A DNA stretch of 64,000 nt from Thermoplasmata archaeon (GCA_021792255.1 JAJYUZ010000002.1:245332-309331); one strand, 5' to 3'. Positions 8,689 to 43,591 are shown, counted from the stretch's first letter. Numbers and translations: made by a program. Notes: generated from the letters alone by a model not told the origin.

Positions 8689-8729
8689 ATTGTCCCAGTT
8701 TATTAACAAGGTAGAATTATGGTAATCTA

Positions 8730-20950: not shown

Positions 20951-21255
20951 CACCCAAATATTAACTCAGGCAATCATTTTAACTTCAAAATTTTAAGCTG
21001 TTTCCTGAAATTTGGGAGAATTAGAAACATTCGCAGCGGCTTGAAAGAATTCTATACAATCAGAATTTCACTACTCGGACGACTATTTTTTTAAATGATT
21101 CAAGCAGGGTGAATTTGGTTGAAGAGTAATCTGTGTTTCTTGCAAAACCATTCATTCAGACAGCACATATGTAAGTCTATCGTACTCTGTGGCGTTTACT
21201 TATCAGGTTAATAACTACAAAAGAGTATAAACCTTGAAAATAGGAGAGACGGAAA

Positions 21256-24021: not shown

Positions 24022-24262
24022 GTATTCCTAGAGAAATCGGAGAGGGTGTACTTTGTACCCCTTCCTTTTAACGGGCTTAAGCTCCCTCTTGCACATGTTC
24101 TAATCAGACGGTCATCACTTTCACAAGAAATACACATCTGAAAACCTCTTTCTGTATCCCCGTACTACGGGCCCCCCTCAAGTATAGTGAGCAACCTGAA
24201 TATTCCGGAGAGTAGTTCTATAATTAAGGGGGAAATTATGTGAGCCTCTAGTCAAGCCCCTC

Positions 24263-24742: not shown

Positions 24743-25000
24743 TGTTCTTTCTCGTGTTTATGATCCAGCGCAATAAATTTGTTTGCCGAGAAAAATTCGG
24801 GAAAACGTCTGCTTGTTTCTATATTCATCGAAAGAGATCCTTGGCTGTAACTCTAACGATCGCATTGCTCAAAAGTGGCTTTCGTATTGACAATTAGAGA
24901 AAAGAGAAAGGCTAACAAAATTGAGTTCCTTTGTCGATCTATAGTATATCAAATTTAGTCATATTTATAATCTTAATGTACATTTATTTGTGAAACTTGA

Positions 25001-25963
25001 ATGGATGATTTAGACATTAAGATACTGCGGGAATTCATTACAGATGTACCTAATAGGTGTCTTCAACCAGACGTTACGAAATCGTACATTGCAATATCGA
25101 AAAATGTGGGCACTACTGAGGATACGGTCAAGAACAGAGTGGATAAAATGTGCGAGAATGGGATACTCAGGGGATGGAAACTAGGGGTGAACCCGACATT
25201 GTTTCGGTATAGAACAGATTTCTTTTATTTCAGCACGTCTTCTTATAATGAAAAGGATAAAGTTATAGAGAAGCTCAAGTCTATATCTGGAGTCCTCTGG
25301 ATTGTTGACTACCTTGGAACATTTGTGGGAGTACTCATATCTTCCAGAGATGAGAAGATGCTTGAAAGAAAGATGTTGCCAATATTTAGCGTTATTAGTT
25401 CTAAGTCATTTGTCCGTGTCAGCAACCAGTTCCCTGAGGTCAAGAAATGTTTGACGACCACAGATTGGAAACTAATCCGAAGCTTAATGAATGATCCTCG
25501 TAAGAAATATTCTGATATCTCTAATGAGCTAGGAATTTCCTCTAGAATGGCTCGAAGAAAATTGAAAACGATGATTGAAGAGCATGCATTTTTTATGTTT
25601 CCAGATATCAATGTGAGGAAGATAGAGGGAAGGGTAGTAGTTACATACGCAATTTTTTACTCAGACGACGTGGGCAAAAAGGAATCGGAGAAAAATTTAC
25701 TGACAAAGTTTCGAAATTACTTTCTTGTCGCTCTACCCCCTGAAAATGCATACGCAGCCTATACATTCATACTTCCAAACCTATCGATAGCCGACAGGAT
25801 AATGGAATATGTGAATGCGTTGAATGGGGTTAGGACTTCTACCATGAGGCCAATCGTAGACTTTATAAACCTCCTAGACAGGACATTTAATAAGGAAATA
25901 AGGCAGAAAACCGTAGTAACTCCTCTTTCTCATTCCGCTTCAGGGCATCCTAATCGTTGCTGA
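25001..25963 (+). CDS. Lrp/AsnC-type transcription regulator with duplicated HTH modules
   Basis: LDIKILREF at the N-terminus and a second DWKLIRSLMNDPRKKYSDISNELGISSRMARRKLKTM at ~aa 165. Both are HTH_AsnC-like. Confidence 0.6.
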   Translation: MDDLDIKILREFITDVPNRCLQPDVTKSYIAISKNVGTTEDTVKNRVDKMCENGILRGWKLGVNPTLFRYRTDFFYFSTSSYNEKDKVIEKLKSISGVLWIVDYLGTFVGVLISSRDEKMLERKMLPIFSVISSKSFVRVSNQFPEVKKCLTTTDWKLIRSLMNDPRKKYSDISNELGISSRMARRKLKTMIEEHAFFMFPDINVRKIEGRVVVTYAIFYSDDVGKKESEKNLLTKFRNYFLVALPPENAYAAYTFILPNLSIADRIMEYVNALNGVRTSTMRPIVDFINLLDRTFNKEIRQKTVVTPLSHSASGHPNRC

Positions 25964-26250
25964 GAGATTTGCCCTCTTAAACAAGCCTTTTGCTCTCAAT
26001 ACACTAGTTCCAATAACGCAACGATAACCGTTGATGGAGGCAAAACATTCAATTATGCAAATAAATCATCAACTACTTTGCCCTGTACTTATTTCAAATC
26101 TGGCGCAAGATATCAGGTCATAATGAATGGAACAACAGTACCTTATTTCATTTCTGACGATGATATTATCGCCTCTTTAAACGGCTGTTTTGAGGCAGTA
26201 TCTTCGATTTGCTTTTAAATATGTTTTGGGGTTCAAATCTTCCTATATAT

Positions 26251-26324
26251 GGGCTTGTCCGGATTTGAACCGGAGTCTCCGACTCCCGAAGCCGAAAGGA
26301 TGGACCAATCTACCCCACAAGCCC
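26251..26324 (-). tRNA. tRNA-Pro (anticodon CGG)
   Basis: The minus strand reads GGGCUUGUGGGGUAGAUUGGUCCAUCCUUUCGGCUUCGGGAGUCGGAGACUCCGGUUCAAAUCCGGACAAGCCC. A cloverleaf was folded by hand. The anticodon loop is UU-CGG-GA and the T-loop is UUCAAAU. No intron and no encoded CCA. Confidence 0.9.
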
Positions 26325-30850: not shown

Positions 30851-31850
30851 TATTCAGGTATAGGTCCCTGTAACAAGAATCTGCCGCTATGGCACCATCA
30901 GATGCTGCCACCACTATCTGTGCAAAGGATCCTGCCACGTCTCCTGCAGCATAAACCCTTTCCACATTGGTCCTGCCGCTTCTGTCTATTTTGATGTACC
31001 CTCTGTCTGTAACTTCCACTCCTAGGCTCTTAGAGAGTTCCGATTGAGGTTCCAGTCCAACATAAATGAACACACCGTCAAAACTTTCTTCGTATTCCTT
31101 GCCATTAATCCTGTCCCTGAATTTTACGGTCTTGACCAGTCTTCCTTCTCCTTTAATTTCAATGACCTGAACGTTTTGTCTGTAATCAATCCCCATCGAC
31201 TGTATCTGTTTGACGTACGCGTCTTCACACATGTACCTAGGCATAAATTCAAAGATCTTCACTTCAGACACTATGTTCTTCATAGAAATCGCGGCAATTG
31301 CCCCCGAATTTCCTCCTCCTATTACGAGTACCTTCTTGTTCTTGTAGAGCCAACCATCACAGGTGCTGCAGTACGAGACTCCCTTCCCGTAGTACTCTTT
31401 CTCTCCGGGAATGCCTAGGTGTTTGTGTTTCGTTCCAGTAGCGAAAATGATTGCCTTTGAATGGAATTCTCCCTTCTCGGTTTCCAGCAAAAATCCGTTC
31501 TCCTTTCTGATGGAAATTACCATGTTGTTGTCAACTATCTTGGTATAGTTTCGTGCGTGCTCCAGGAACTCTTTTGCCAGATCAGTTCCCGCGATCTCGG
31601 TGAATCCGAGATAGTTCTCAACTAGAGGTGCTTCCAGCGTCAATCCCCCAGCCGTAGTTCCATCGATCACGACGTTAGAGAGTCCTGCTCGAGTCGCATA
31701 GACAGCCGCAGAAAGCCCGGCTGCCCCAGCTCCTATAATGACAAGATCAAAGTCTCTTTTTTCTAACTCTTGTCTCTCTTCTCCTAAGATGAGCTCCAAT
31801 AGGAATCCCCCTTTACATCGGAGGCATTCCGCCCATACCTTCAGGGCCAC
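30840..31850 (-). CDS. trxB: thioredoxin reductase
   Basis: FAD motif LVIIGAGAAG, redox-active CSTCDG, NAD(P)H motif VIGGGNSG, and AAGDVA. The ATG at 31850 overlaps the thermosome 3' end. A TTG at 31799 is an alternative start that avoids the overlap. Confidence 0.85.
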   Translation of the reverse strand: MALKVWAECLRCKGGFLLELILGEERQELEKRDFDLVIIGAGAAGLSAAVYATRAGLSNVVIDGTTAGGLTLEAPLVENYLGFTEIAGTDLAKEFLEHARNYTKIVDNNMVISIRKENGFLLETEKGEFHSKAIIFATGTKHKHLGIPGEKEYYGKGVSYCSTCDGWLYKNKKVLVIGGGNSGAIAAISMKNIVSEVKIFEFMPRYMCEDAYVKQIQSMGIDYRQNVQVIEIKGEGRLVKTVKFRDRINGKEYEESFDGVFIYVGLEPQSELSKSLGVEVTDRGYIKIDRSGRTNVERVYAAGDVAGSFAQIVVAASDGAIAADSCYRDLYLNNAR

Positions 31851-33462
31851 CCATTCCCGGAGGCATGCCTCCAGGCGGGCCCTCGCTCTTTGATTTCCTA
31901 GATGAGATTACGTCGTCAATCCTCAGTATCATTGTTGCGACTTCGGTTGCGCTTTCGATAGCGTGACTCTTCACTCTGACCGGCTCTAATACGTTCTTCT
32001 TGAAGAGATCGCCGACAGTTCCGTCCATCGCATCAATTCCCACATTCTTGTTTCCTGTCTGGTGTTCCGATCTCAGTTTGAGCAGCGAATCAATTGGATC
32101 CATACCTGCGTTTTCAGCCAGAGTTCTAGGGACTATCTCGAGTGCATTTGCGAATGTTTCAATGGCCAGCTGCTCTCTTCCGCCCACAGTCGGGGCATAC
32201 TTCTTTAGTTGATACGCTAGCTCTGCCTCTATCGCTCCTCCACCCGTCACAAAAGATTGATCCTCAATTGCCACACCTACTACCTTGAGTGCGTCGTGGA
32301 GTGCCCTTTCAACTTCGTCTATAGTGTGCTGCGTCCCTCCCCTTATAAGAATTGAAACCGCTTTAGGATACTTGCATCCGGTGATGAAAGTCAACTTGTC
32401 GTCCCCAATCTTTCTCTCCTCGGTCTTCTCTGCGTTTCCCAGATCTTTCGAAGTAAGATCATCAAGATTTGTAACGATCTTTGCCCCAGTTGCTTTTGCA
32501 ATCTTTTCCATATCGCTCTTCTTGACTCTCCTGACCGCATATATGCCTTCCTTTGCAAGGAAGTGCTGTGCAAGATCGTCAACTCCCTTCTGGCTCATTA
32601 GAACGTTTGCGCCAGACTTCTTGACTTTATCTACCATCGCCCTGAGGGTTTCTTCTTCTTGGTCGAGGAATGCCTGAATCTTGGATGGATCCGTAATTTG
32701 AACCTTGGCATCGATCTCAGTTTTCTTGATTTCCAGACCGGAATCGATAAGTGCTATCTTAGAGCTCTTAACTTCATTCGGCATTCTCGGATGAACCTTT
32801 TCTTTGTCTATGACAACTCCTTCTATTAGCTCAGAATCTGTGATTCCTCCCCCGAACTTTTTCTGGATGAGTATGTTGTCAACATCCACAATCTTTTTTC
32901 CGTCTCTCTCTTCGACGATACTCTTGACAGCCTTCATTGCCATCTTTGCAAGAAAATCGGTCACACCACCAACGTTCTTTCCTGTCATAGCGGTCAGTGC
33001 AACGTTCTTAAGAACTTCATCACTAATTTTCTTCTCAGATATGCTAGACAGAATCTCAGCGGTCTTATTGGACGCCAACTTATATCCGTTGGCTATGACG
33101 GTTGGATGGACGTTCTGATCTAGTAATAGCTCAGCCTGTTTCAGTAATTCTCCGGCAATAACCACTGCAGTAGTCGTACCATCTCCCACTTCTTGATCCT
33201 GTCCTTTTGCAATTTCAATAATCATTTTTGCGGTGGGATGATCGACATCCATCTGCTTCATTATGGTAGCCCCATCATTAGATATGGTAATATCTCCCAG
33301 CGAATCTACTAACATCTTGTCCATTCCTTTCGGGCCAAGTGCCGATTTGACTGTATCTGCAATAGCCTTGGCGGCCTCAATATTATTTCTTTGAGCATCT
33401 TTTCCAGATTCCCTGGTCGAACCTTCTTTCAAAACTAGGATAGGGATTTGTCCCGATAACAT
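31813..33462 (-). CDS. ths: thermosome subunit (group II chaperonin)
   Basis: LGPKGMDKML, ITNDGATI, VGDGTTT and VTGGGAIE, with a C-terminal GGMPPGMGGPEGMGGMPPM tail. Confidence 0.95.
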   Translation of the reverse strand: MLSGQIPILVLKEGSTRESGKDAQRNNIEAAKAIADTVKSALGPKGMDKMLVDSLGDITISNDGATIMKQMDVDHPTAKMIIEIAKGQDQEVGDGTTTAVVIAGELLKQAELLLDQNVHPTVIANGYKLASNKTAEILSSISEKKISDEVLKNVALTAMTGKNVGGVTDFLAKMAMKAVKSIVEERDGKKIVDVDNILIQKKFGGGITDSELIEGVVIDKEKVHPRMPNEVKSSKIALIDSGLEIKKTEIDAKVQITDPSKIQAFLDQEEETLRAMVDKVKKSGANVLMSQKGVDDLAQHFLAKEGIYAVRRVKKSDMEKIAKATGAKIVTNLDDLTSKDLGNAEKTEERKIGDDKLTFITGCKYPKAVSILIRGGTQHTIDEVERALHDALKVVGVAIEDQSFVTGGGAIEAELAYQLKKYAPTVGGREQLAIETFANALEIVPRTLAENAGMDPIDSLLKLRSEHQTGNKNVGIDAMDGTVGDLFKKNVLEPVRVKSHAIESATEVATMILRIDDVISSRKSKSEGPPGGMPPGMGGPEGMGGMPPM

Positions 33463-33496
33463 CTAAATTTCACCCTAAAACGGTAATTCGTTCTTC

Positions 33497-33504
33497 TATA
33501 TAAA
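33497..33504 (-). promoter_or_regulatory. TATA-box-like element upstream of the thermosome gene
   Basis: The minus strand reads TTTATATA about 35-40 nt upstream of the ATG at 33462. Confidence 0.35.
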
Positions 33505-33708
33505 TGTTGTAAGCTCAGGTTCTGTTAATATGACGGTTGATAAATTTGGTTGTAAATTTTCGGTTGGTGAAAAGTGCAAAAGGAAACACAATTTGATTCT
33601 AAAGATAGGAGGGGCAACAAAGTGCGTATAAATCTATCAGAAACAAAAAGTCAGGGGCTTGAGTGTGATGTCTGCCGTTTTCACGACCGAATAATCAGGA
33701 TGCACCTT

Positions 33709-34101
33709 TCATGACTTCGAACTTAGAGTATGTTCCTTGGCCCTCACTAAATGTTTCAGTTTTATGAAATATAATATAGCAGTCAGTATACTGCCGACAA
33801 TCATAGATATCTGAAATGCAGCCATAAAATGCTCTCCACCTACTACTTGTGGTGTATCGAAAATTTTGGGGTTTCCGTTGTAGATCACGGGAAGCTCCCA
33901 ATAAGCATGGAAATATGTCTCAAGAATGTAATTCACTCCTGGAAGATAGCTGTAATGAGGAGGGCCTAACCCAGTTGTATAGACGAAGTCCCACAGTGCC
34001 ACCAGATAGTACAAGATAGCTCCCTCTACGACTGCAAAGATAACAGTAACACTTACTATTTTATGAGAGCTTTTCATAGTGTCAAGAGCCTGAGCTCCCA
34101 T
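33709..34101 (-). CDS. small membrane protein coupled to the G1 peptidase gene
   Basis: The ORF overlaps the upstream protease gene stop by 20 nt. It has two clear TM helices flanking an aromatic-rich loop. No family recognised. Confidence 0.5.
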   Translation of the reverse strand: MGAQALDTMKSSHKIVSVTVIFAVVEGAILYYLVALWDFVYTTGLGPPHYSYLPGVNYILETYFHAYWELPVIYNGNPKIFDTPQVVGGEHFMAAFQISMIVGSILTAILYFIKLKHLVRAKEHTLSSKS

Positions 34102-35380
34102 ATAAGTTATACTTGGAGTTTACCCATGTCATATTCGGTTCCATATATCCGCTTTGAGTCGTGATTGCATCATTTATGTTTTGATTCACATTTCCCCACG
34201 ATTGATTTAGTATGTATTTGTTGTAATATCCATTGTTCAGCAATGTGTTAAGGTTGCTATAGCCATTAATAGTCAGGACTGATGGTGAAACAAAGGTAAC
34301 TGCAGGACTAAATACGGCCAGTTGTGAGATTACATAGATCCCAGATCCGGCTTGATCCGTTTCCGGTGTTTCTATAATATACTGTGCATACTTAGGCGAA
34401 TTGTAATATGGAGTGGTAACAGTGTAGGTGTAATAATTGTTCAGAGTAATAGCGACATATGTCGCGATATCATTCGAATTGTAGACTATTGAAAATTCTA
34501 TGCTTGTTCCACTTGAAGGAGCTGGCATTCCAGGATACCCCCCGGAGTAGGCAGGCGATGTTCCATTAGACCAAGTCTGGTACCATATAGTATATGCACC
34601 CCAGTTATATCCTCCAGTCCATGAATCATACCAGAAGATTCTTTGGAATCCCGTTTGTACTATGTTTGTAGCATTAGAATTGCTTGGATCGCTGCCTCCA
34701 ACATATGGAGAGATGCCGATCCATCCGTTCATTGCTTCATTATATCCCGATGGATGGGAAGAAAGTGTTATAGAAGGGATCGTAAGGGAAGCAGTATTCT
34801 GTGTTATAGAATAACTTGGATCGTAACACTCATATCCAGCCCAGTTTTCGTTGTATTGGGTGGTTGAAGAGTATACAATTGGCCCCACTGAGATTTCTGG
34901 ACCGTAGACTGTCTCATTCAAAGAGGAGTATCCGTAGGTATAACAAGTCTGATTTACGTTCCCTTGTACAGTCATAACAAGATAAACGTTGTAACTTTGG
35001 TTCACAAAGTCATAGCTTTCTCCTTGAGTAAAGTAGATTTCATTATACTGTTCGTAGGAATTATAACCTTCCTGAAAGACGGCGCTATTCTCGATGTCGT
35101 GAAGAGCTTCTATAGAATCTCTCTCCAACGCACTAAGGGAATTGCTATATTTGAAATTCCACTCGTGACTTACTGCCACTTCTTCTATTGCCAGTACACT
35201 AGAATTTGTAACGCCATCAGAAAGCGAATTGAAATTCAGTAGCGCATTGTAAGAAGTTGAATGTAGCCCACCCTGTACACCTTCGGTACTGCCGAGCAAT
35301 GAAACATTGACAGAAAGCATGACTAAAGAAATAAAAATGCTTATCATCACTTTCTTCTTGAAATTTTTCATATTATCCAT
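34082..35380 (-). CDS. secreted glutamic peptidase, family G1 (eqolisin-like) with N-terminal pro-region
   Basis: Signal/TM segment KKVMISIFISLVMLSV. The collinear G1 landmarks are all present: ENWAGY, WIGISP...IVQTGF (catalytic Gln position), YTIWYQTW, AQYIIETPE (catalytic Glu position) and LAVFSPAVTF. Many N-x-S/T sequons. Confidence 0.75.
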   Translation of the reverse strand: MDNMKNFKKKVMISIFISLVMLSVNVSLLGSTEGVQGGLHSTSYNALLNFNSLSDGVTNSSVLAIEEVAVSHEWNFKYSNSLSALERDSIEALHDIENSAVFQEGYNSYEQYNEIYFTQGESYDFVNQSYNVYLVMTVQGNVNQTCYTYGYSSLNETVYGPEISVGPIVYSSTTQYNENWAGYECYDPSYSITQNTASLTIPSITLSSHPSGYNEAMNGWIGISPYVGGSDPSNSNATNIVQTGFQRIFWYDSWTGGYNWGAYTIWYQTWSNGTSPAYSGGYPGMPAPSSGTSIEFSIVYNSNDIATYVAITLNNYYTYTVTTPYYNSPKYAQYIIETPETDQAGSGIYVISQLAVFSPAVTFVSPSVLTINGYSNLNTLLNNGYYNKYILNQSWGNVNQNINDAITTQSGYMEPNMTWVNSKYNLYGSSGS

Positions 35381-35624
35381 CCAAAATGACTATATTTCCA
35401 TATCACTTAACCTTACCGGAGAATTAATTCAAAATAAGTGAATTAACTACCTTTAATCACTTAAAGTCGACAAAAAGTTGTAAATATCGCTTCCTAAGAC
35501 AATGGGTTTATTCAGACACACTTTTAGACTCTATAGTGTCGGGTTAAATCTTAAATGGTTTAGCAGGAATATTCTTTGCAGATCGTTAGAATTTGATATT
35601 TAGTACTCGCTTTCTGGGACTACA

Positions 35625-35717
35625 ACTATCACCATTTTGTTATCACTAATTTGGACTGAAGGAAAAGCAACGGTTGAATTGGACGATTGAAGTTAAAGAT
35701 AACAAAATGGTGATAGT
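35625..35717. repeat. 93-bp element with perfect 20-bp terminal inverted repeats
   Basis: ACTATCACCATTTTGTTATC (35625-35644) and its exact reverse complement GATAACAAAATGGTGATAGT (35698-35717), separated by 53 nt. It sits in the 484-bp gap between two protease genes. Confidence 0.8.
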
Positions 35718-35864
35718 AATAACTCTTGAAATTACTTAGTTGATAGCCCTTAGCTCGTAACTTTGAGTTGATGGCTCTAAGCAGGTACTCTATTTTTCTA
35801 GGAACTTTGGAAAAATGAAAGAATTGAAAAAGAAATAAATAAAGTATAAAAATGAATCTTATCG

Positions 35865-36278
35865 TCAGGTCTTTATGTCTAGTAAGAAGCCGTTATCTAT
35901 GAAATCATTAACCCCGTTTGTCACCACATCAAACACTTTGATTTGTTTTTCGACCATACTCACGGTAGAAACGTTAACCCAAGTGTTATTTACTGGATTG
36001 AACAGTTGATCTCCAACAGTGAGATTTTCAGGGTTTTTCAGCCAACCCGTAAAGGTGGAGTTTCTGATGTAAATGGGTTGATCAGTTGGGGTCAATAACA
36101 ATGCGCCGCCATTTACGATTACCTCTTGAGATACTTCTGTCTTGTTGTTAAATAGAAGAGTTCCTATGAACATACTTCCATTTTGAAGATTATACTCTTC
36201 AACTTTTCCCCCCTGTTTCAGGTCTTGAATTGGTATATAACCGTTTGGCGTCAGGATTAGACTTCCCCAGGCAACACA
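35865..36278 (-). other. C-terminal Hint-like (Hedgehog/intein-type) domain, copy B
   Basis: TSGGG-C(36276-36278)VAWGSLILTPNGYIPIQDLKQGG ... LLLTPTDQPIYI ... VFDVVTNGVNDFIDNGFLLDIKT-stop. About 35-40 percent identical by eye to copy A. Confidence 0.6.
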
Positions 36279-37716
36279 GCCTCCTCCAGAAGTAGAGACA
36301 TCAACATAGAATTGACTTTGTGTGACGGAATAGTCATCAGTTACCGACATTGTAAGTCGATAACTTCCAGTGCTTGCACTACTCGGAACCTCAATATTGA
36401 CGTAGAAAGAGAATGGCGGAGACCCGCTTGAAGGCACAAAGCCATAAGTCCAGCCATTAGGGAGGTTTACCATACTGAGAAAGACATCACTGCCTCCACT
36501 ATACGCCTGGTAGGTATTTCCATATATCTCGACGCCTGAGCCAGGAGAGACAGCTGTAGAACCTAGGTAGCCCGCGCCAAGATCCACTCCGATAGTGGAC
36601 AAGAACCATTCATTGGCAATAGTTACATCGTTTCCGCTCGTTAGGACTCTAGTTGTGATATTTGATGGCAGCGGACCCGTAGAAAAGGCTGACCAACCAG
36701 ATTCCGTATTCCCAGTAAAATTAAAGTTCCAATACGGCCAGTACTGAGTTGTGGTATCGTACACCTCTTCCCAGTCCGTGTAATCATAATATCCATCATA
36801 CGTTGACTGTGCTACGAATTCAGTCCCTCCTGTATGATACCACTTTATAAAGATAGGATAGGGATTTACGCCTTGTCCTGTGTATGCTGAAAACTCTACT
36901 GTGCCATTGCTATTCGTGCTCATTACAAAGGTATAATATTGGTTTTCTTCAAGGTTGTAAGCGTCAGGATTGTAGACATAAGTTTGATTGGTCCATCCAA
37001 CGGACCAAGTTAGCCCCCAAGAACCATAATCTCCAGAGAAACCAATCTGGTCATACGCATTGCTGTTATCCCAAATGGAGAGGATTACATAATAGAAATC
37101 TGTTGGGGCCTGAATTCGATTCTGGGGTTAATATGGTGACCTGTACCTGAGTGAGCGTGGTTGAACCTCCCCATGATGCCCCTTCCACATATGAAACATT
37201 GGAAGAGTATCTAGGAGGAAAAGAGGCAGACGGAAAGCTGGCATTACTAGACACCGAAACTTTGTGCATGGTAGGAGGAGGTAGGTTTCCGCTGTACGTA
37301 CTGGGCGATGTGATATAATACTTGATAATAAGTAAAGTTACTTCTTTAGTACCTGACCATTCAATACCGACGTAATTGTCTGGAGAGAGCCAAGTCTTAA
37401 GAGATGGGCTCGGTATACCACTGATGGATATAGAATAATTTGTTCCATTCGTTTCAACCACCCAACCCTTCAATCCCGTACCTGCAGGAGAATATAGGTT
37501 GACTCCAAATAATGTAAAACTCACAAAGTGAAAGATGAAAGTTTGTGTGGAAGTGGTATTCCCTCCGAGGAAAGATAATGCAAGAGTTACATTTTCAGAA
37601 AAATAGTTATTGAGATTCGGAGTGGCCCGATCGTTCGAATAAAGCGCTAAGCTCATAGAAGACGTTGCAGTTATAATAGAAACTATTATCACAAGACTTT
37701 TTAAGTTCATGTTCAA
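35865..37716 (-). pseudogene. frameshifted gene for a secreted G1-like beta-sandwich protein with C-terminal Hint-like domain
   Basis: ORF 37066..37716 carries a signal peptide (MNLKSLVIIVSIITATSS). The frame of ORF 35865..36923 stays open upstream to 37127 and overlaps the tail of the first ORF. The two frames differ by 1 nt at a C4 run (37125-37128). The joined product would be ~616 aa, with SWGGS, ILSIWDN..YDQIGF and YTDWEEVYD collinear with G1 landmarks. Confidence 0.6.
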
Positions 37717-37754
37717 ACATCTCCTGCTTTAAATGAGTTGAACACATTTTACCG

Positions 37755-37775
37755 TTTCCCAGACAGTCTGGGAAA
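37755..37775. promoter_or_regulatory. perfect 21-bp palindrome (candidate operator) in divergent promoter region
   Basis: TTTCCCAGAC-A-GTCTGGGAAA, with 10-nt arms and a 1-nt centre. Its 3' edge lies 3 nt upstream of a TTAAATA box, which is ~25 nt upstream of the GTG start at 37807. Confidence 0.6.
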
Positions 37776-37806
37776 TCATTAAATACGGTTTATTTCTGGT
37801 ATAGTT

Positions 37807-38337
37807 GTGAGGAAGGACGGCCTAGTCTTGGTTATCACGATAGGTATCTCTCTTGCGAACTCCATATTCTCAATAGTTTTCGTTTTGCTAATTCTCACTT
37901 CAAATATTCCACCAGTTAAGGGGTCGCCTGGAATGGTAAAGGTACCTGGTTATTCAGTTGCAGCAATTCCAATTTCAACTGCGGCACTTGGTTGGTTAAT
38001 TATCTGCTATGAATTGATATCGCATAGAAAGAACGATATTTCGAAGATTCTGAGGAAAAGACTATCAGAAAAATGGGATAACCGAGCACTGTACGATGCA
38101 TTTAGGGGGAGGGGCGGACCGAGAAGGCTTTCAATAATGGAGAGCTTGGGTACACCGAAGATGAGAAATGAAATAGCCCAGCTCACTGGCACTGACTGGA
38201 AAGAGGTCGATAGGAATATAAGAATTCTTGAGTCAATTGATTTAGTAAGAATACAATACAACCACGGCACGGTATCAGTATACGAATTAACTGGTAAAGG
38301 AAAAGAGTTCCTGAACCTTGTCGAAACAGAGATTTAG
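37807..38337 (+). CDS. membrane-tethered winged-helix (ArsR-like) transcription regulator
   Basis: Two N-terminal TM helices are followed by GRGGPRRLSIMESLGTPKMRNEIAQLTGTDWKEVDRNIRILESIDLVRI...VYELTGKG, an ArsR/HTH_20-like wHTH. Confidence 0.65.
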   Translation: MRKDGLVLVITIGISLANSIFSIVFVLLILTSNIPPVKGSPGMVKVPGYSVAAIPISTAALGWLIICYELISHRKNDISKILRKRLSEKWDNRALYDAFRGRGGPRRLSIMESLGTPKMRNEIAQLTGTDWKEVDRNIRILESIDLVRIQYNHGTVSVYELTGKGKEFLNLVETEI

Positions 38338-39007
38338 GCTCGGGCGTTTCGTTAAGGGGTTTCGCACGCTACTCTGTCACCTCCATTTGTTCGCTTTGAA
38401 TGTACATTGTTGTAAGGGCCCAAGTGCAAGTCTTATGATAATCTAGACAACGGAGGATCTTTAGGTACTGCGCAACATACTTCTCTATTACCGTATCTTA
38501 ATACAAACTTACTCAGCTCTTATCTCATAAGTTGATTTCCTATTAAATTAAGGGTGATACATGTCACACCCGAAACAGGGTTCTGTTAACTTGCTGGATG
38601 CTGGACATGGTTGTTAATTATCGGATGCTACCAAAGACATTAAAATTCGGATCTTAACCATAGAAACTAAGACAAGGCACTGGTTTAAATCATCAAAGAT
38701 GTTTTGATTTTTAGACCAATTTTAAGAAAGGCAAATAATGAGCTCATCAGAAAGAGACCAATTTCTAAAGAAGAGTGATTCGTTGGTTTTGGCAGAGTTA
38801 GGAATATCAGCCTATAGGTCCCTAGTATTTACCGTCGTAAATCTCTCAATCACTATTTCAACAGCAAAGTCTTCACTGATGACTGGAACTGCGACAACAT
38901 TTCTAACCATTCCTCTCGTATTCGATTTACTTGTTATTTCCTTTTGACGAGCACTAAGAGAGATAATTAGACTGAATGCTAAAACTGATTGATTTCTTCT
39001 TGTTGGC

Positions 39008-39319
39008 TTAACTGTAGCTAATTCTGCGATGTATCACTAGGACTACACCAGTTGCAGGGAGCAGGAATATCAAGAAATCTAAAAATAATGCGAGAAAATC
39101 TATAACCCCTATGGTAAAGATAGCGTGATTGCCTTGATAAATTCCCCAAGCATAAGGAAAAGGAAAACCTCTCTGCCAGGTTGTCCAGAGAATCCCGGCT
39201 GTATGAACTACTTTAAAGTAGAGATAGCTGAGCAATGTTAGTCCCACTGAGATTAGAACAGAATATATGGTCAGCAAGAATGCCCTCCTATACTCTGTTT
39301 TTATCATTTTAACCTCCAC
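39008..39319 (-). CDS. small membrane protein coupled to the S53 protease gene
   Basis: 103-aa ORF with 3 TM segments, starting 15 nt after the protease stop codon. No family recognised. Confidence 0.5.
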   Translation of the reverse strand: MEVKMIKTEYRRAFLLTIYSVLISVGLTLLSYLYFKVVHTAGILWTTWQRGFPFPYAWGIYQGNHAIFTIGVIDFLALFLDFLIFLLPATGVVLVIHRRISYS

Positions 39320-39334
39320 GCCTCCTTTAATCTC

Positions 39335-39778
39335 TCAAGTCTTCACATCCAAAAGTATTCCATTAGCAATGTAGCTGCTTCTGAGATATCCATCTTGGTA
39401 GAACAATTTGGACCCTTGGATGTCATAAACAGTGAAATTTCCATTGGTCATCTGTATTGAAGTGACTTGTATCCAAGTGTTATTTAAAGGATCAAATATG
39501 GCGTCTGATGTATTCAGATAACCGACCATTATCCATTCTACTGTTCCGTTTGAAAGTTTTACATAGATGGGTTGATCGCGTGCACCTGAAACGAACAGTA
39601 ATCCGTTATCAATATTGATTATTGAATTTACGTTTGTGACATTAATTTCAGTAACTTCCTCTTCAACAAAGTTGCCTCCGATTGGATCATAGGAAAGTAT
39701 TTGATCTCCCACTTTTAGATCTTGAACTTGGATGGTCTTGTTCAAAGAAGTCTGAATAAGAGTTCCATTCAAAACACA
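39335..39778 (-). other. C-terminal Hint-like (Hedgehog/intein-type) domain, copy A
   Basis: SSGGGGG-C(39776-39778)VLNGTLIQTSLNKTIQVQDLKVGDQIL ... LFVSGARDQPIYV ... VYDIQG...YIANGILLDVKT-stop. Confidence 0.6.
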
Positions 39779-41563
39779 ACCGCCACCACCTCCACTTGAG
39801 GTATAATAGTTGCGAAGGGCTTGAACAAAATTATATGCATTAACGCTGCCAATGCCAGTAACATAATCCCATCCGCTTCCCGCCGACATTCCGTTATTTC
39901 CAGTTGTTATGTCCGTGTATGCTCCTGACGAGTAGCCTATGCTGTAAATCCCTTTATTTATGAAACCGTAAACATCCCCCGTCCCATTGAGGTAAGTATC
40001 AGCTATTATACCTGCCATCATTGGAGTAGCGTAACTAGTACCATCTACACCGCCATAGAAGGTGCCATCGAAGTATACCACGATAGATGGCGCCGCGGCA
40101 AAAGAGATGTCCGGAATGTCTCTGTACCCATTGTTAGGCGCAACGCCACTTTGGTATGAAGGTTGGGAGAATATGGGATTATTAGTCACGTATCCTCTTC
40201 CACTTCCACTCCAGCCACTTTGGCCGCTGATATCTGAACTCGTCAAAGATAAAGTTACACCTCCAACTGCTATTGAGTTAGGGTCCAATGCAACCATATC
40301 TATGTTATTGCCACTTGACGAGTATCCATTGTCTCCTGTGGCAGCCACAATCGTAATTCCTTCAGTAGTTGCCTGAGCAAGAAAATCATGGATATTATCA
40401 ACTTCGCTAGTACTTATGGAGTTGTAAGTTGGCGCAATGCTAAAGCTCATCACAACGGGAACTAAAGTATTGACCATATAACTAAGCTCTTGATCAAATT
40501 CGTATTCGAATCCAGTATCCCCTCCAGATGGAGCGCTATAAATGACATCGTCGATAGTGGCGCCTGGAGCAATAGTACCTGCCCACTCAACGTCAAGAGT
40601 CTCCTCTAGACTAGCTCGATTATTCCCCCACGGTGGTAGCCCTCCTCCACCGATTATTATTTGCGTATCGGATGGATAATAACTCTGACCATTGTAGGTG
40701 TATTTTATGTTGTAATGTTCCCAGAAATTTTGGGGATCTGTCCCGTAATACCTCCAGTCAGGATAACCTATCAATCCAATTGTTATCCACTTTCCATCAT
40801 ACCCATTTTGTAATAAAGGAGTAATATTGAAGTATGGGTTTATATCATAGGGGTTTGCCGTTAGCACTGTCTGTCCTGGTAAGCCCCCATAGACTTGATC
40901 CCACTCAGTATAAACAAATGGAGTATTATTTACTAACTCAGCTCCGTAATCGTTTAGACCACTGATTGTAGTTATCTCGTTGACTATGTTGTTTGGAATA
41001 ATGGGATCATTGGAATTTGCATAAAAGTAGGTTCCATTGAGTTCATAATTGATCAAGGTAATTCTCAATAATTGTTCCACGAATCCAGCTGTCTCTTCAA
41101 AGGAGATTTCTCTTCCGTTAGAGAAATTCATTTCTTTCACTCCAGAAGAACTCAGCCAGTCCTCCACAGAACTTATCGCGCCTGCCATTGGTCCAAATTT
41201 TGACATGAACTCAGATGGAGTCAAGAACTTGTGAAAGAGGCTGCTGCTTGTATTTGAAACTAACTGCGAATAACTCGTTGCTGCAGAAATATCAATCGAA
41301 AGATATATTTCCAAAGATAGTTCAGTAGTATTGTTCAGTTGAGATAGGTCCATAGCTTGGGAAAGAAAAGGAAGAGTATCATTCAATGGCACTTCTAGTA
41401 CCTCGTTTACCATGGGTGGGGTGCTTGTTCCGTCTAAATAGGATATCCCAGCTATTGAGGAGCTAGATAACAAACTGAAAGAAATCGCTGATACGAGAAC
41501 AAAAAGTCCGTACTTTTCAAAAATAGCTTTTACTAGGACTCTGAAATTCATACTTTGTATCAT
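39335..41563 (-). CDS. sedolisin-type serine-carboxyl pro-peptidase (S53) with C-terminal Hint-like domain
   Basis: N-terminal TM/signal segment, then a pro-domain (FLTPSEF..FGP), then the catalytic EETLDVEWAG (Glu/Asp) and DGTSYATPMMAG (Ser). A GGGGG-Cys junction and a 147-aa Hint-like tail follow. An alternative ATG is at 41551. Confidence 0.8.
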   Translation of the reverse strand: MIQSMNFRVLVKAIFEKYGLFVLVSAISFSLLSSSSIAGISYLDGTSTPPMVNEVLEVPLNDTLPFLSQAMDLSQLNNTTELSLEIYLSIDISAATSYSQLVSNTSSSLFHKFLTPSEFMSKFGPMAGAISSVEDWLSSSGVKEMNFSNGREISFEETAGFVEQLLRITLINYELNGTYFYANSNDPIIPNNIVNEITTISGLNDYGAELVNNTPFVYTEWDQVYGGLPGQTVLTANPYDINPYFNITPLLQNGYDGKWITIGLIGYPDWRYYGTDPQNFWEHYNIKYTYNGQSYYPSDTQIIIGGGGLPPWGNNRASLEETLDVEWAGTIAPGATIDDVIYSAPSGGDTGFEYEFDQELSYMVNTLVPVVMSFSIAPTYNSISTSEVDNIHDFLAQATTEGITIVAATGDNGYSSSGNNIDMVALDPNSIAVGGVTLSLTSSDISGQSGWSGSGRGYVTNNPIFSQPSYQSGVAPNNGYRDIPDISFAAAPSIVVYFDGTFYGGVDGTSYATPMMAGIIADTYLNGTGDVYGFINKGIYSIGYSSGAYTDITTGNNGMSAGSGWDYVTGIGSVNAYNFVQALRNYYTSSGGGGGCVLNGTLIQTSLNKTIQVQDLKVGDQILSYDPIGGNFVEEEVTEINVTNVNSIINIDNGLLFVSGARDQPIYVKLSNGTVEWIMVGYLNTSDAIFDPLNNTWIQVTSIQMTNGNFTVYDIQGSKLFYQDGYLRSSYIANGILLDVKT

Positions 41564-41584
41564 GGCATCCAGTTCATTTATTGA

Positions 41585-41605
41585 TTTCCCAGAATTTCTG
41601 GGAAA
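41585..41605. promoter_or_regulatory. perfect 21-bp palindrome (candidate operator), second copy
   Basis: TTTCCCAGAA-T-TTCTGGGAAA. It lies between a TATA-like CATTTATT (41575-41582, minus-strand AATAAATG) for the protease gene and TTATATATA (41609-41617), which is ~25 nt upstream of the ATG at 41638. Confidence 0.6.
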
Positions 41606-41637
41606 TTGTTATATATAGATTACCGCTAATTTGAGCA

Positions 41638-42411
41638 ATGGGAAAAAGAAACTACGTCATTATTCTTCTACTCACGTTATCAATAGTTAGTTCTGCATAT
41701 TCCGTATTTCTTTTCCTAAGTTCATATTTTTCTCAGTCCATTTTTTTTGTTTATACTTCTAAGGCAATCCTAGCATATCCATATAACATACTTCCTGTAT
41801 CCTCCGCAATGTTCGGCTGGGTCTTGTTAAGTTATCAACTGATTTACAATAATAGGAGACATATTGCTACAATTATTAGAAAAGAGATTTCTGGTAAGTC
41901 AGATGATTGGACTATTTATTATGCCTTTAAGGGCAAAGGAGGTGCAAGGAGACTAACGATAATGGAAGCCCTAACCTCACCCAGACTGAGGAACGAAGAG
42001 GAAATGCTTAGGGAACTAGAACTCCCATACAGAGTCGTGATGCTGAGTTCAGGAGATATGGGTGTCAGAGATTTCAAGCAGTTAGATCTTGAGGTATTCA
42101 TGCCCTACCAGGCAAAGTACAGGGAAGTAATGTCCAACGACAACTGTACGGACTGGATATCCAGGAGATCTGGCATTAGACTTACTGACGCAGAAGGCAA
42201 CAAGATCTTCGCTCATACAGTAGACGCAACAGGACTTGCAATTCAACGTACCATCAAGTCTATACTGGAAGTACACCAGAGGAAAGACGGGACTGTCCGT
42301 GTACCTGAGCCCTTGGTGAAGTTTACGGAATTCTCGACCATCAGAACAAGGATAAGAAATAAAGATGTGTTGACCCTTGATGATCAGCAGTCTTGGGATT
42401 CAATTCTTTGA
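41638..42411 (+). CDS. chimeric ORF: N-terminal part of a membrane-tethered wHTH paralog fused in frame to a seryl-tRNA synthetase C-terminal fragment
   Basis: aa 1-120 parallel the 37807 regulator (2 TM, then GKGGARRLTIMEALTSPRLRNE versus GRGGPRRLSIMESLGTPKMRNE). The sequence then switches to LELPYRVVMLSSGDMG..LDLEVFMP..YREVMSNDNCTDW..RRSGIR...HTVDATGLAIQRTIKSILE, which is the SerRS class II core downstream of motif 2, including motif 3. Confidence 0.6.
   Translation: MGKRNYVIILLLTLSIVSSAYSVFLFLSSYFSQSIFFVYTSKAILAYPYNILPVSSAMFGWVLLSYQLIYNNRRHIATIIRKEISGKSDDWTIYYAFKGKGGARRLTIMEALTSPRLRNEEEMLRELELPYRVVMLSSGDMGVRDFKQLDLEVFMPYQAKYREVMSNDNCTDWISRRSGIRLTDAEGNKIFAHTVDATGLAIQRTIKSILEVHQRKDGTVRVPEPLVKFTEFSTIRTRIRNKDVLTLDDQQSWDSIL
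41998..42411 (+). pseudogene. seryl-tRNA synthetase 3' fragment (about 135 codons)
   Basis: Only the segment from after motif 2 to the C-terminus is present. The N-terminal coiled coil, motif 1 and motif 2 are absent, so it cannot be a functional SerRS by itself. Confidence 0.6.
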
Positions 42412-43028
42412 TACAGGACGTAAAATTTCCTATCGTTGAAATAGAACCTGACTATTCTGTAGCCCTTGAAAAAAGTCCTCAATTCCCTCTCTGTAAAGTA
42501 GTGATAATAGCTGCCGTCCTTATGGATGTATGTTCCTCTCTCTGATGTGCGGGTTTGACCCCAGTGCTTTCTCTGTGACCATATAGTCCTTTGGTCGCTC
42601 TCCAGGTACAGGTACCCTCTCAACCTCGTAACTCTTCTGATCTCTTCAATGTCCTCTCTGATTCGTTGAATATCGGCTTGATAGATCGCTCTCACTGCGA
42701 TAACTGCGTCATAATATCCATCTTCATATGGAAGGGCGTGCTGATAGTTGAATATCTGGAACGAGGCGCTGCTTTTGGCATTTCGCTGACCTTCGATCGC
42801 CTTTTCTATTGCCATCTTTGATCCATCGAAGCCGGTCAGTTCAAATCCTTGGTTCGACAAGAATATTGAATTTCTCCCAGCCCCACAGTAGAAGTCAAGT
42901 ATTCTCTTGACAGTATTCGCCTTGAAGAATATGCTCAACTTTTTCATGCTCCGTGATGGAGATTGTTGCCCCAGAAAGTTTCCTTCATAATATGCTTGAT
43001 AAGGATCTCTTGACGCTTCTTTGTCCAT
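42384..43028 (-). CDS. class I SAM-dependent methyltransferase
   Basis: Motif I is ILDFYCGAGRNSIFL. An acidic post-I residue and a DAVIAVRA motif II region are present. Converges on and overlaps the chimeric ORF by 28 nt. Confidence 0.7.
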   Translation of the reverse strand: MDKEASRDPYQAYYEGNFLGQQSPSRSMKKLSIFFKANTVKRILDFYCGAGRNSIFLSNQGFELTGFDGSKMAIEKAIEGQRNAKSSASFQIFNYQHALPYEDGYYDAVIAVRAIYQADIQRIREDIEEIRRVTRLRGYLYLESDQRTIWSQRKHWGQTRTSERGTYIHKDGSYYHYFTERELRTFFKGYRIVRFYFNDRKFYVLYQRIESQDC

Positions 43029-43177
43029 TCCGACTCACTGGTATTTCCTCCTCGTATTCCATTATTGCTATTGAAATTGATTGCGTATCTAGCTTCCCAC
43101 CGAGTTTCGAATATTCCAAATTGCTTCGCGTGACCGTTGTTGGTAATGATTAAGTACCGAGCCGTTTTTTGAATTTT

Positions 43178-43591
43178 ATGAGATTCCTTGCGTGGCATGT
43201 GGGGAGGTTTAGAGCGGTTCCTTCGGAAAAGGGAAGGTCTCCTATAGTTGAGGATGCGAGAACGGTTGAAACGGAGAACGCCATCTTGGTATTTGCAAAC
43301 TTCGAGAAGAGTGACGAATCGCATCAACCCGAAATAGTTGCAAAAGCATCCACCGAGATGTCCTCCATAGCTAGCAACCTGAAGGTTGGAAACATCGTAC
43401 TCAATCCATTTGCCCACCTATTCGCCGAGTCGTCCACTCCAGAGTCTGCAGTCTCTATGTTAAGGGCTCTTGAGACATCTCTTGCAGCGGACGGCTTTCA
43501 AGTTCAAAGGCTCGCCTTTGGAATGTTCTACGAGTTGGAGCTAACAGCTAAAGGTCACCGCTATTCAAGGATCGCAAGAAGGGTCGACTAG
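43178..43591 (+). CDS. free-standing archaeal ThrRS-type (DTD-like fold) editing domain protein
   Basis: About 138 aa: MRFLAWHV..., AILVFANFEKSDE, LNPFAHLFAESSTPESAVSMLRALE, FGMFYELELTAKGH..SRIARRV. It is collinear with the N-terminal editing domain of archaeal threonyl-tRNA synthetases. No catalytic or anticodon-binding domain follows. Confidence 0.7.
   Translation: MRFLAWHVGRFRAVPSEKGRSPIVEDARTVETENAILVFANFEKSDESHQPEIVAKASTEMSSIASNLKVGNIVLNPFAHLFAESSTPESAVSMLRALETSLAADGFQVQRLAFGMFYELELTAKGHRYSRIARRVD

Follow-up and report, generated by a model that had tools for sequence, protein, structure and literature searches.

A candidate transmembrane regulator and its predicted operator in an IS6-shaped patch encoding secreted acid peptidases in Thermoplasmatales

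Relatives of the regulator

Transmembrane transcription regulators (TTRs) are one-component proteins that unite transmembrane (TM) segments with a DNA-binding domain; ToxR and CadC are bacterial examples, ArnR and ArnR1 are TTRs of Sulfolobus. In archaea, such regulators are common (PMC10269533) and include the membrane-bound ArnR and ArnR1 (PMC6396743). The 176-residue protein described here is encoded in a 64-kb stretch of DNA from a Thermoplasmata archaeon (the window), and carries two predicted TM segments and a profile-predicted DNA-binding domain in a single polypeptide. Like other TTRs, it would act from the membrane on genes for surface or secreted products. However, compared to ToxR, CadC and ArnR the order is reversed, the TM hairpin lying at the N-terminus and the winged helix-turn-helix (wHTH) at the C-terminus. 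It further differs from described TTRs in lacking a sensor domain in its predicted outside loop of about 20 residues, in having an ArsR-like DNA-binding domain and acid-protease genes as predicted targets, and in belonging to a family that is restricted to a few Thermoplasmatales lineages.

Hydropathy places hydrophobic segments at residues 4-38 and 49-71, with basic residues after the second TM helix. The wHTH was called from sub-threshold Pfam matches and a single profile match, in which residues 92-160 match ArsR/CzrA structures (E=0.002). Three HTH matches, among them the weak HTH_20 and HTH_45, all stay below threshold, and the curated ArsR/SmtB score is not reached (HTH_20 15.8 bits vs a cut-off of 27). 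The likeness to the ArsR family, as judged from this alignment of about 70 residues with CzrA (PDB 1r1u/2kjb/6cda), is real and remote. The candidate operator is a dyad in the regulator's own promoter, as would be expected for a dimer; unlike ArsR/SmtB repressors, the present protein is membrane-anchored. Homologues occur in MAGs of Thermoplasmatales/Thermoplasmata only (five clusters among 5.8 billion proteins; 4 of 185,579 genomes). The open reading frame is intact in every lineage, down to 41% identity, and the predicted recognition region, TDWKEVDRN, is identical in all homologues with a wHTH, i.e., in all except a truncated copy in the window.

Composition and mobility of the patch

The regulator gene lies in a patch (33463-41991) flanked by a thermosome gene and a methyltransferase gene (Table 1). 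It is the 8.5-kb stretch with the lowest GC content in the window, and both GC and GC3 step at its edges, GC3 being 0.32-0.42 within the patch vs 0.49-0.52 in flanking genes. A preliminary description of this DNA had placed the flanks and every listed open reading frame correctly. The low GC content that it noted is real as well, but the contrast (39.9% vs 44.4% elsewhere in the window) is smaller than the 35-42% vs 48% that it gave. The patch is best explained as an IS6-shaped accessory region of a Thermoplasmatales genome that encodes secreted acid peptidases. Acidophiles typically carry S53 and G1 peptidases, and the host is an acid-loving archaeon without a cell wall.

Table 1. Features of the patch, in coordinates of the window.
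Feature	Position	Strand	Basis or remark
IS6 terminal-inverted-repeat-like remnant (GGTTCTGTTAA...), left patch edge	33518..33566	+	49-nt repeat D2; BLASTN E=1e-4
Small 2-TM membrane protein, 130 aa	33709..34101	-	ORF; hydropathy segments 12-40, 91-119
Secreted G1 (eqolisin)-like glutamic peptidase, 432 aa	34082..35380	-	BLASTP; aligned Q/E motifs; N-terminal hydrophobic segment
28-nt inverted repeat, 89% complementary, 37-nt loop	35625..35717	.	Left boundary of mobile module
(Pseudo)gene, secreted protein with C-terminal Hint domain	35865..37716	-	ORFs; L005 alignment; Hint HMM
Candidate operator palindrome 1, TTTCCCAGAcagTCTGGGAAA	37755..37775	.	Between divergent TATA-like boxes
Predicted transmembrane transcription regulator, intact, 176 aa; 2 TM, then C-terminal ArsR-type wHTH	37807..38337	+	Hydropathy; profile match
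Second IS6-type inverted-repeat remnant	38579..38627	+	Repeat and BLASTN; L005 homology ends exactly at 38578
Small 2-TM membrane protein, 103 aa	39008..39319	-	ORF; hydropathy; 15 nt downstream of S53 gene
Secreted S53 (sedolisin/kumamolisin-type) pro-protease, Gly5 linker, C-terminal Hint	39335..41563	-	Pfam, AF2, Foldseek
Third, imperfect palindrome-like site, TTCCCAGAAATTTTGGGGA, 2 mismatches	40718..40736	.	Inside S53 coding region
Candidate operator palindrome 2, TTTCCCAGAattTCTGGGAAA	41585..41605	.	Divergent intergenic region
Truncated regulator paralogue, residues 1-118: TM hairpin, linker, first wHTH helix	41638..41991	+	GC3 0.32
In-frame C-terminal third of atypical SerRS-like paralogue	41992..42411	+	PF00587 3e-8; P0160

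The G1 protease announced in the preliminary description is borne out as G1-like. It matches the G1 protein of a related locus, L001, which is itself PF01828-positive at 1.2e-10, in BLASTP (6e-8) with NWAGYE, VQTG and AQYIIE aligned, and the catalytic Gln and Glu of G1 are conserved between the two in VQTG and AQ(Y/F)(I/V)(I/V)E. While these Q/E motifs are shared with eqolisin, the protein is too divergent for PF01828 (Peptidase_A4): nothing in Pfam was matched at E<=0.1, and a PDB sequence search gave no match. A homologue that bears a Hint tail (P0015) is found by BLASTP at 7e-10; the window protein has no such tail and ends in a linker, YNLYGSSGS. The gene for the 130-aa membrane protein, which had no match in family searches, overlaps the G1 gene stop by 20 nt. 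No relationship is detectable between this protein and the 103-aa one.

The Hint-tailed S53 protease was likewise identified correctly. Besides Pro-kuma_activ (PF09286, E=2e-22) and Peptidase_S8 (PF00082, 2.8e-7) matches, the active-site motifs EETLDVEW, ATGDNG and GTSYATP are legible and intact in its translation. The protein resembles sedolisin/kumamolisin in its activation domain and these motifs, and differs in its C-terminal Hint domain (39335-39778, beginning at Cys596); its true start is likely the ATG at 41551. For the other Hint-tailed gene the earlier reading stands in part. The reading frame and the Hint domain (35865-36278; Hint HMM 1.8e-56) are present, with the ATG at 37710 as likely true start, but the gene is a pseudogene. 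The orthologue of L005 is intact (614 aa); relative to it, one additional C near 37108 splits the window gene into 37066-37716 and 35865-37127, and the lesion is also present in a second assembly (L004). That it encodes a protease is not established: hhalign against the G1 pair gives a probability of 0.1%, and a low-confidence model (pLDDT 58) matches 2ifr/2ifw in Foldseek at E=3-5e-4 with a TMt of 0.47-0.48.

Elements of the IS6 family generate an 8-bp target duplication and have a characteristic inverted-repeat start. The window segment 35650-38578 matches 5840-8772 of L005, a MAG, at 84.5% nucleotide identity. L005 contains a 4.57-kb element (4352-8921) with inverted IS6-type ends at 4352 and 8921, an IS240/IS6 DDE transposase (PF13610, DDE_Tnp_IS240; 8e-12) and a bracketing 8-bp direct repeat, CATACATA, as target duplication; its cargo consists of the Hint-tailed protein, the palindrome and the regulator. 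Transposase, GGnnCTGT... inverted ends and duplication are those of the IS26/IS240 type, from which the element differs by its passenger genes, and this combination was found in L005 only. The 64-kb window holds no transposase. Its two remnants are solo and in the same orientation and bound the units; the D2 repeat has the sequence of the inverted ends of the L005 element, and the homology to L005 starts within the inverted repeat downstream of the Hint-tailed gene. As read from these sequences, the module of regulator, palindrome and secreted-protein gene is mobile.

The candidate operator and its divergent partners

The palindrome of the preliminary description is real; as TTTCCCAGA-N3-TCTGGGAAA, it is perfect in each of the two divergent intergenic regions of the patch. 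A search of the whole 64-kb window for its 19-nt core, TTCCCAGA-N3-TCTGGGAA, with up to two mismatches gave three matches compared to 0.06 expected, all within the patch. All regulator homologues that were recovered have the palindrome upstream, in nine non-redundant contexts from about nine Thermoplasmatales loci (two in the window, L001, L005/L006, L007, L008, L009, L010 and L011), some of which are close relatives. In all loci, this 9-3-9 dyad stands 30-32 nt from the regulator start, with an A/T-rich TATA-like box 2-4 nt past it. The half-sites are fixed while the spacer varies (cag, att, tat, ttt, aag, ggt, gat, aca, gaa), and in L008 both arms bear the same change (TTTCCCATA..TATGGGAAA). 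Apart from a copy before the neighbouring gene of L001, encoding a 267-aa protein, and the weak third site in the window, the flanks are free of it. The geometry is not uniform on the target side: in L001 only 9 nt separate the palindrome from the start annotated for the G1 gene, in the window 44 nt separate it from the Hint-gene ATG.

The gene divergent to the regulator encodes, without exception, a protein that is secreted or anchored in the membrane. In the window the partners are the S53 protease (palindrome 2) and the frameshifted Hint-tailed protein (palindrome 1). Elsewhere they are a G1 protease (L001; PF01828 1e-10), a G1-type protein (L011; 4e-14), a Hint-tailed protein (L005/L006) or a 267/270-aa secreted protein of unassigned function (L007, L008 and L009). 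Acid proteases are thus partners in three lineages. The joint occurrence with the regulator gene, the fixed geometry and the secreted or membrane-anchored partner constitute strong comparative evidence that the palindrome is the cognate operator of the regulator for a small secreted-protein regulon, although the binder could be an unlinked factor. The idea of a tight functional pairing is weakened in that the gene next to the intact regulator, its own target, has become a pseudogene here and that the orthologue of this gene is truncated in L006.

According to the preliminary description, a unit of Hint-tailed protease gene, palindrome and membrane regulator gene occurs twice in the same arrangement, but each copy has one dead half. 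The supposed second regulator aligns with the first at residues 1-119 only (35% identity), stops short of the recognition helix and is fused, at a shared Asn-Glu (LRNE|EEML), to a SerRS-like fragment that is 73% identical to P0160, with SNDNCTDWISRRS common to both. The GC3 of 0.49 of this fragment marks it as flanking core-like DNA. Given the frameshift on one side and this truncation on the other, there is one complete unit and one partial unit rather than two equal copies: on the present reading frames, the regulator of the former is live but its target gene dead, whereas in the latter it is the protease that is live and the regulator that is dead. Of the three parts expected to travel together, palindrome and regulator do so in every locus, but the Hint-tailed gene is not constant. 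The conserved unit, as defined by comparison of the loci, is the 2-TM ArsR-type wHTH regulator with its predicted 9-3-9 operator and compact bidirectional promoter; the Hint tail does not belong to it. The idea that the regulator reads an extracytoplasmic signal is not supported either, its short predicted outside loop being poorly conserved.

We consider it fairly likely that a transmembrane regulator with its own predicted operator controls itself and a few secreted, mostly acid-protease genes from an accessory patch. With both ends of the protein in the cytoplasm, its two TM helices would expose the loop outside and leave the ArsR-type wHTH at the cytoplasmic side. The bidirectional promoter would span about 75-95 bp, with the operator between two outward-facing TATA-like boxes; these boxes and the BRE position were identified by eye. 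A regulator dimer, for which we infer DNA binding, would sit at approximately -33 to -53 of the regulator gene, which is probably leaderless. On either side it would reach into the BRE position and would then control the regulator gene and the divergent secreted-protein gene jointly. Repression by exclusion of TFB/TBP, relieved by a membrane or envelope cue, is slightly favoured over activation. The single intact regulator would serve both window operators in trans, with the live S53-Hint protease, next to which the regulator copy lacks a recognition helix, among its targets.

Three other readings have to be weighed. Firstly, the patch might be a decaying mosaic of IS-mobilised pseudogenes without current regulation, its arrangements reflecting duplication and transposition history only. 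The frameshifted gene, the truncated fusion, the solo remnants, the loss of the transposase from the window and the broken Hint gene of L006 all fit such decay, but the regulator has stayed intact across all lineages with its recognition region and operator unchanged, the S53 catalytic motifs are preserved, and history alone does not explain a spacing that is conserved despite differing partner genes; we regard this reading as unlikely. Secondly, and slightly less likely again, the palindrome could be the paired BRE/TATA of a bidirectional promoter or the site of an unlinked factor, the membrane protein not being the binder. Nine fixed bases per arm exceed a BRE, the 19-nt pattern is found nowhere else in the promoter-rich window, and the palindrome accompanies the regulator in every locus and even moves with it inside the IS6 element; this outweighs the weak wHTH evidence and the GGGAAA (by eye) that ends the outer arm where a purine-rich BRE is expected beside the TATA-like boxes. 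Lastly, the twice-repeated, self-contained module of the preliminary description, with a tethered sensor in control of a cognate autoprocessing protease and the Hint tail as integral part, fits both window copies and the L005/L006 copy but is the least probable and largely refuted by the comparative data. The partners in L001, L007, L008 and L009 lack the tail, and neither regulator nor palindrome is near the homologue of the S53-Hint gene in L014, a contig of 443 kb. The tail is moreover widespread on unrelated passenger domains (see below), and in the window one Hint gene is frameshifted and one regulator cut off before its recognition helix.

The C-terminal Hint tails

The block-B His is regarded as a key catalytic residue of Hint domains, e.g., H69 in BIL2 (PMC8616854). 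The two window tails are homologous to each other (2e-16), which together with their fold upholds their earlier recognition as Hint domains. For the AF2 model of the S53 tail (pLDDT 80.7), the best Foldseek match is BIL2 (6y75; E=8.5e-10, TM 0.74), and the best 50 matches are all BIL, intein or Hedgehog, including 2lwy (E=2.8e-8) and Hedgehog 6tyy/1at0 (4e-5 to 1e-4). A profile of the tail also matches 2lwy (E=4.3e-9); no curated Pfam or NCBIfam model scores above threshold. By model and profile, the tails have a true Hint fold that is closest to BIL domains.

Besides the fold, the tails share with BIL and Hedgehog Hint domains their occurrence on secreted proteins and a Cys after Gly, as at the Hedgehog Gly-Cys site. 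This domain-initial Cys (C216 and C596 in the window tails) is present in 119 of 132 family members, and 117 of the 132 have one or more Gly in front of it. Unlike in BIL2, the His of the block-B TxxH is replaced by Gln: xQP is found in 141 of 149 members, alignments A2 and A3 have Gln throughout, and DQP aligns with DHP of 2lwy, with Gln opposite His. Blocks F/G resemble the ...VYD...ANGxL... pattern of inteins, but the family has neither the intein-type terminal (His-)Asn nor a C-extein. The domain ends in ...ANGxLLDxK followed by 0-6 residues at the C-terminus (0-3 residues in 142 of 149 members). At this extreme C-terminal position without C-extein, splicing is therefore excluded and only N-terminal cleavage or transfer is possible. 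In contrast to Hedgehog, nothing follows the Hint module, the sterol-recognition region being absent.

The family comprises 4,411 protein clusters in which unrelated passenger domains, belonging to diverse secreted proteins, carry the tail. The Hint tail stands apart from the regulatory unit and is a general trait of secreted Thermoplasmata-type proteins. The BIL/Hedgehog-like domain most likely self-cleaves, as we infer, at the junction of the Gly run and the Cys after export. A further step, which we hold to be rather improbable, is that the tail with GGGG-C...DQP...ANGxLLDxK is a His-independent, acid-adapted Hedgehog/BIL-type domain that transfers its passenger to a membrane-lipid, glycan or protein nucleophile. 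A thioester would then form after Sec export at very low pH, with proteases and Ig-like surface proteins as passengers, and surface proteins of wall-less Thermoplasmata would be anchored or conjugated independently of sortase and archaeosortase. Alternatively, the tail could be a self-removing export or folding aid. It may also be speculated that the exposed loop of the regulator is clipped by the proteases under its control, which would close a feedback loop.

To our knowledge, little is known about the regulation and handling of secreted acid proteases in wall-less extreme acidophiles, and an operator has been predicted for very few transmembrane regulators of archaea. For S53 and G1 protease genes of archaea, the locus offers a directly testable pair of predicted regulator and operator, seen moving as cargo within an IS6 element. 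It moreover reveals a very large, uncurated C-terminal Hint family without the canonical block-B histidine. Should these tails be active, they would add a new catalytic variant to Hint chemistry and suggest that archaeal surface proteins generally pass through a maturation or anchoring step of this kind; self-cleaving tags for low pH could also be derived from them.

Layout, limits and mobility of the patch

The genes between the thermosome and methyltransferase genes are listed in the table. As the preliminary description had it, the region is low in GC and the ORF list confirms the gene order, but its first Hint-tailed gene is broken and its second wHTH ORF is a chimera. The stretch 33463-41991 has 39.9% GC compared to 44.4% elsewhere in the window; no other 8.5-kb segment of the window is lower in GC. 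GC3 is 0.32-0.42 in the patch genes and 0.49-0.52 in the flanking genes. A further lower-GC stretch (0.38-0.43) is present at 20001-26000, upstream of tRNA-Pro (26250-26324).

Features of the patch and its surroundings (genes from the ORF list; window coordinates)
Feature	Position	Strand	Remark
Thermosome gene	31813-33462	-	left flank
49-nt repeat, first copy	from 33518		same orientation as second copy
Small membrane protein	33709-34101	-	
432-aa secreted protein	34082-35380	-	G1-like
Inverted repeat	35625-35717		28 nt, 37-nt loop
Two adjacent ORFs	35865-36923 and 37066-37716	-	one broken Hint-tailed gene
Palindrome, copy 1	37755-37775		perfect
176-aa protein	37807-38337	+	regulator
49-nt repeat, second copy	from 38579		
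Small membrane protein	39008-39319	-	
742-aa protein	39335-41563	-	S53, Hint-tailed
Palindrome-like site	40718-40736		2 mismatches
Palindrome, copy 2	41585-41605		perfect
257-aa ORF	41638-42411	+	chimera; SerRS-like part 41992-42411
Methyltransferase gene	42384-43028	-	right flank
ThrRS editing-domain protein	43169-43591		

The right edge of the patch is located inside the 257-aa ORF, which had been taken for a second wHTH regulator paralogue. Residues 1-119 are indeed a paralogue of the 176-aa regulator (35% identical), but the match ends at ...SPRLRNE, ahead of the recognition helix and wing. The rest corresponds to the last, C-terminal third of a SerRS-like protein of class II (PF00587, 3e-8), which is of an atypical type with SNDNCTDWISRRS and HTVDATGLA (compare L013, 25-1118). 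Since GC3 steps from 0.32 to 0.49 exactly at this junction, the junction marks the edge. The truncated paralogue would be either dead or, at most, a membrane partner that does not bind DNA. The closest relatives found for the SerRS-like fragment are themselves short, SerRS-like ORFs. One of these, P0160 (177 aa, 73% identical), also has SNDNCTDWISRRS and is preceded by an overlapping 187-aa ORF. No second SerRS or full SerRS-like gene is present in the 64-kb window. Near the fragment, adjoining the methyltransferase gene, a free-standing archaeal ThrRS editing-domain protein is encoded (PF08915, 5e-26).

Comparison with the related locus L005 reveals how the regulator region moved. Window 35650-38578 and L005 5840-8772 share nucleotide homology of 84.5% over 2.9 kb, which ends exactly where the second copy of the 49-nt repeat (GGTTCTGTTAA...) starts. 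In L005, an element of 4.57 kb (4352-8921) has this repeat at both ends in inverted orientation; the element holds an IS240/IS6-family DDE transposase (PF13610, 8e-12), has the 8-bp direct repeat CATACATA on both sides as a target duplication, and carries an intact 614-aa Hint-tailed gene, the palindrome and the regulator as cargo. This structure indicates that the module was transposed as IS6 cargo. An IS66-family transposase gene (2904-4265) lies just outside the L005 element. In the window, the two repeat remnants are present without any IS6 or IS66 transposase remnant. Where the homology to the L005 module ends on the left, there is an inverted repeat between the Hint-tailed and G1-like genes, possibly a terminator or else the scar of a recombination. 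Known RNAs were not found at the patch edges, as Rfam gave no match over 30-46 kb of the window, nor is there a tRNA at these edges, the only tRNAs of the window being at 26 kb and 49 kb. Altogether, the patch in its entirety is accessory DNA of a mobile kind.

Secreted proteins and the Hint tail

By its Pfam match (PF09286, 2e-22), the 742-aa protein is a peptidase of pro-kumamolisin/S53 type, and its translation keeps the active-site motifs EETLDVEW, ATGDNG and GTSYATP intact. Its homologue on the 443-kb contig L014 has a TIR-domain protein gene directly upstream (4700-5371). The 432-aa protein has no match in Pfam and PDB sequence searches, but aligns at 6e-8 to a PF01828-positive G1 peptidase of locus L001 with NWAGYE, VQTG and AQYIIE in register, which justifies the label G1-like. 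It stops in the Gly/Ser linker YNLYGSSGS, exactly where its tail-bearing homologue P0015 (7e-10) runs on into a Hint tail, suggesting that the tail was lost from the window protein or gained elsewhere. The overlapping small membrane-protein gene begins at this linker end. Both small membrane proteins of the window contain two hydrophobic segments; kinship between them is not detectable, and no homology was found to the 162-aa gene that follows the S53 gene of L014.

The third secreted protein is the Hint-tailed one of the two adjacent ORFs. These ORFs are a single gene in two frames, and alignment to the intact orthologue (L005, 6060-7904) places a single extra C at approximately 37108. The broken gene, including the lesion, is base-for-base identical in a second assembly (L004), and the Hint gene of L006 is both truncated and split. 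The motifs YDQIG and DYTDYEE had raised the suspicion that this protein is a G1 peptidase as well; hhalign gave this a probability of 0.1%, a poor AF2 model (pLDDT 58) gave a weak Foldseek match, and the protein was left unassigned.

The tails of the frameshifted and S53 proteins are 32% identical to each other (2e-16). An AlphaFold model of the tail with eight homologues is confident (pLDDT 80.7), and its best PDB matches are Tetrahymena BIL2 (E=8.5e-10, TM 0.74) and a Clostridium thermocellum BIL domain, with numerous inteins and the autoprocessing domain of Hedgehog ranking below them. A profile from a second tail set matches the C. thermocellum BIL sequence as well (E=4.3e-9), with T-x-T-D-Q-P of the tail aligned on T-T-F-D-H-P. 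The first residue is Cys in 119 of 132 members, preceded by at least one Gly in 117 of the 132. The block-B His (H69 in BIL2), considered a key residue in the N-S acyl shift (PMC8616854), is replaced by Gln in 141 of the best 149 members. In 142 of the same 149, the tail ends 0-3 residues from the C-terminus. Neither a C-extein nor a terminal Asn is present, which rules out splicing; the tail may instead undergo N-terminal cleavage in the style of Hedgehog or BIL-A, or hand its passenger over to another nucleophile.

An exhaustive profile search yielded 4,411 representative tail clusters at E≤1e-3, 261 of them at E≤1e-30. The name of one of ten clusters checked bore a taxon, Thermoplasmata archaeon. 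Passengers in 71 members include CarboxypepD_reg, InlB-type repeats, PKD, S53, thermopsin, G1 and reprolysin. A few tail-family members (P0014, P0018, P0041 and P0059) have two to eight Hint-like stretches, some internal rather than C-terminal; in P0014, two stand in tandem, the second being a Pfam Hint_2 match at 1e-12. No curated family matches the tail, the regulator or the small membrane proteins above threshold, and literature searches found no description of this tail or this regulator. The fold of the tail is a known one, of which the tail would represent a new catalytic variant, and its family is very large and uncharacterised.

The membrane regulator and its candidate operator

The regulator has hydrophobic segments at residues 4-38 and 49-71, the second followed by a basic stretch. 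The predicted loop outside the membrane is short and varies between homologues, whereas TM2 contains invariant G, W and Y residues. Approximately 70 residues of its C-terminal domain align to the ArsR/CzrA wHTH (profile E=0.002; Pfam HTH matches are sub-threshold). The predicted recognition region, TDWKEVDRN, is identical in every homologue possessing the wHTH. By these features, the protein is best read as a transmembrane transcription regulator.

Its candidate operator is the palindrome TTTCCCAGA-N3-TCTGGGAAA, perfect in both divergent intergenic regions of the window. The 19-nt core TTCCCAGA-N3-TCTGGGAA with at most two mismatches gives three matches in 64 kb versus 0.06 expected. The third, TTCCCAGAAATTTTGGGGA, falls within the S53 coding sequence, about 830 nt in; it is present in L004 as well, and may have arisen by chance or serve as a secondary site of binding. 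In every locus recovered, the palindrome is just upstream of the regulator gene, 30-32 nt from its start codon in all loci, and a TATA-like, A/T-rich box follows the palindrome at a distance of 2-4 nt. This geometry would fit a leaderless transcript, with the dyad at about -33 to -53. The arms are constant while the spacer varies freely, and L008 has the identical substitution in both arms. On the opposite side of the dyad, the start of the divergent gene in most cases lies at a distance of about 28-36 nt, and an A/T-rich box belonging to that gene adjoins the arm. Two loci deviate: L001, with 9 nt to the annotated G1 start, and window copy 1, with 44 nt.

The divergent partner differs between loci. 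It is the S53-Hint gene at window copy 2, and at window copy 1, L004, L005 and L006 a Hint-tailed protein whose N-terminal part has no assigned function. In L001 it is a G1 peptidase without Hint tail, a second palindrome standing before a 267-aa secreted protein, and in L011 a G1-type protein related to the window G1-like protein (4e-14). Homologues of the 267-aa protein are the partners in L007, L008 and L009. This membrane-anchored, beta-rich family of 267/270 aa (L001:4613-5416, L007:7070-7882, L009:3-407, L008:3-401) has no match in Pfam and NCBIfam and no homologue found in the window. It is the commonest partner at palindromes, under predicted control of the regulator, in more distant lineages. 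Near the S53-Hint homologue of L014 neither regulator nor palindrome is present. The conserved unit is therefore regulator, operator and a secreted-protein gene, often for an acid protease, and the Hint tail is incidental. The preliminary description is partly confirmed in what it observed, and its proposal of a tethered regulator with a cognate Hint protease is partly supported, namely for the predicted regulator-operator pair and its divergent secreted partner.

A regulator dimer would bind the dyad, which lies centrally in a bidirectional promoter, and would control both its own gene and the divergent one; in the window, the intact regulator would serve the S53 promoter in trans. We lean towards repression, because the arms extend as far as the BRE position, ArsR-type proteins typically repress, and the L001 dyad overlaps the G1 core promoter. 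In archaea, activation from a site directly ahead of BRE/TATA occurs too, so control could also be positive.

The regulator family comprises 5 clusters among 5.8 billion proteins, with homologues in 4 Thermoplasmatales/Thermoplasmata MAGs among 185,579 genomes and on one further metagenome contig; a search of viral contigs gave none. Transmembrane transcription regulators are common in archaea (PMC10269533), ArnR and ArnR1 being examples (PMC6396743). Within this known class, the regulator and its predicted operator would be a new, narrowly distributed pair.
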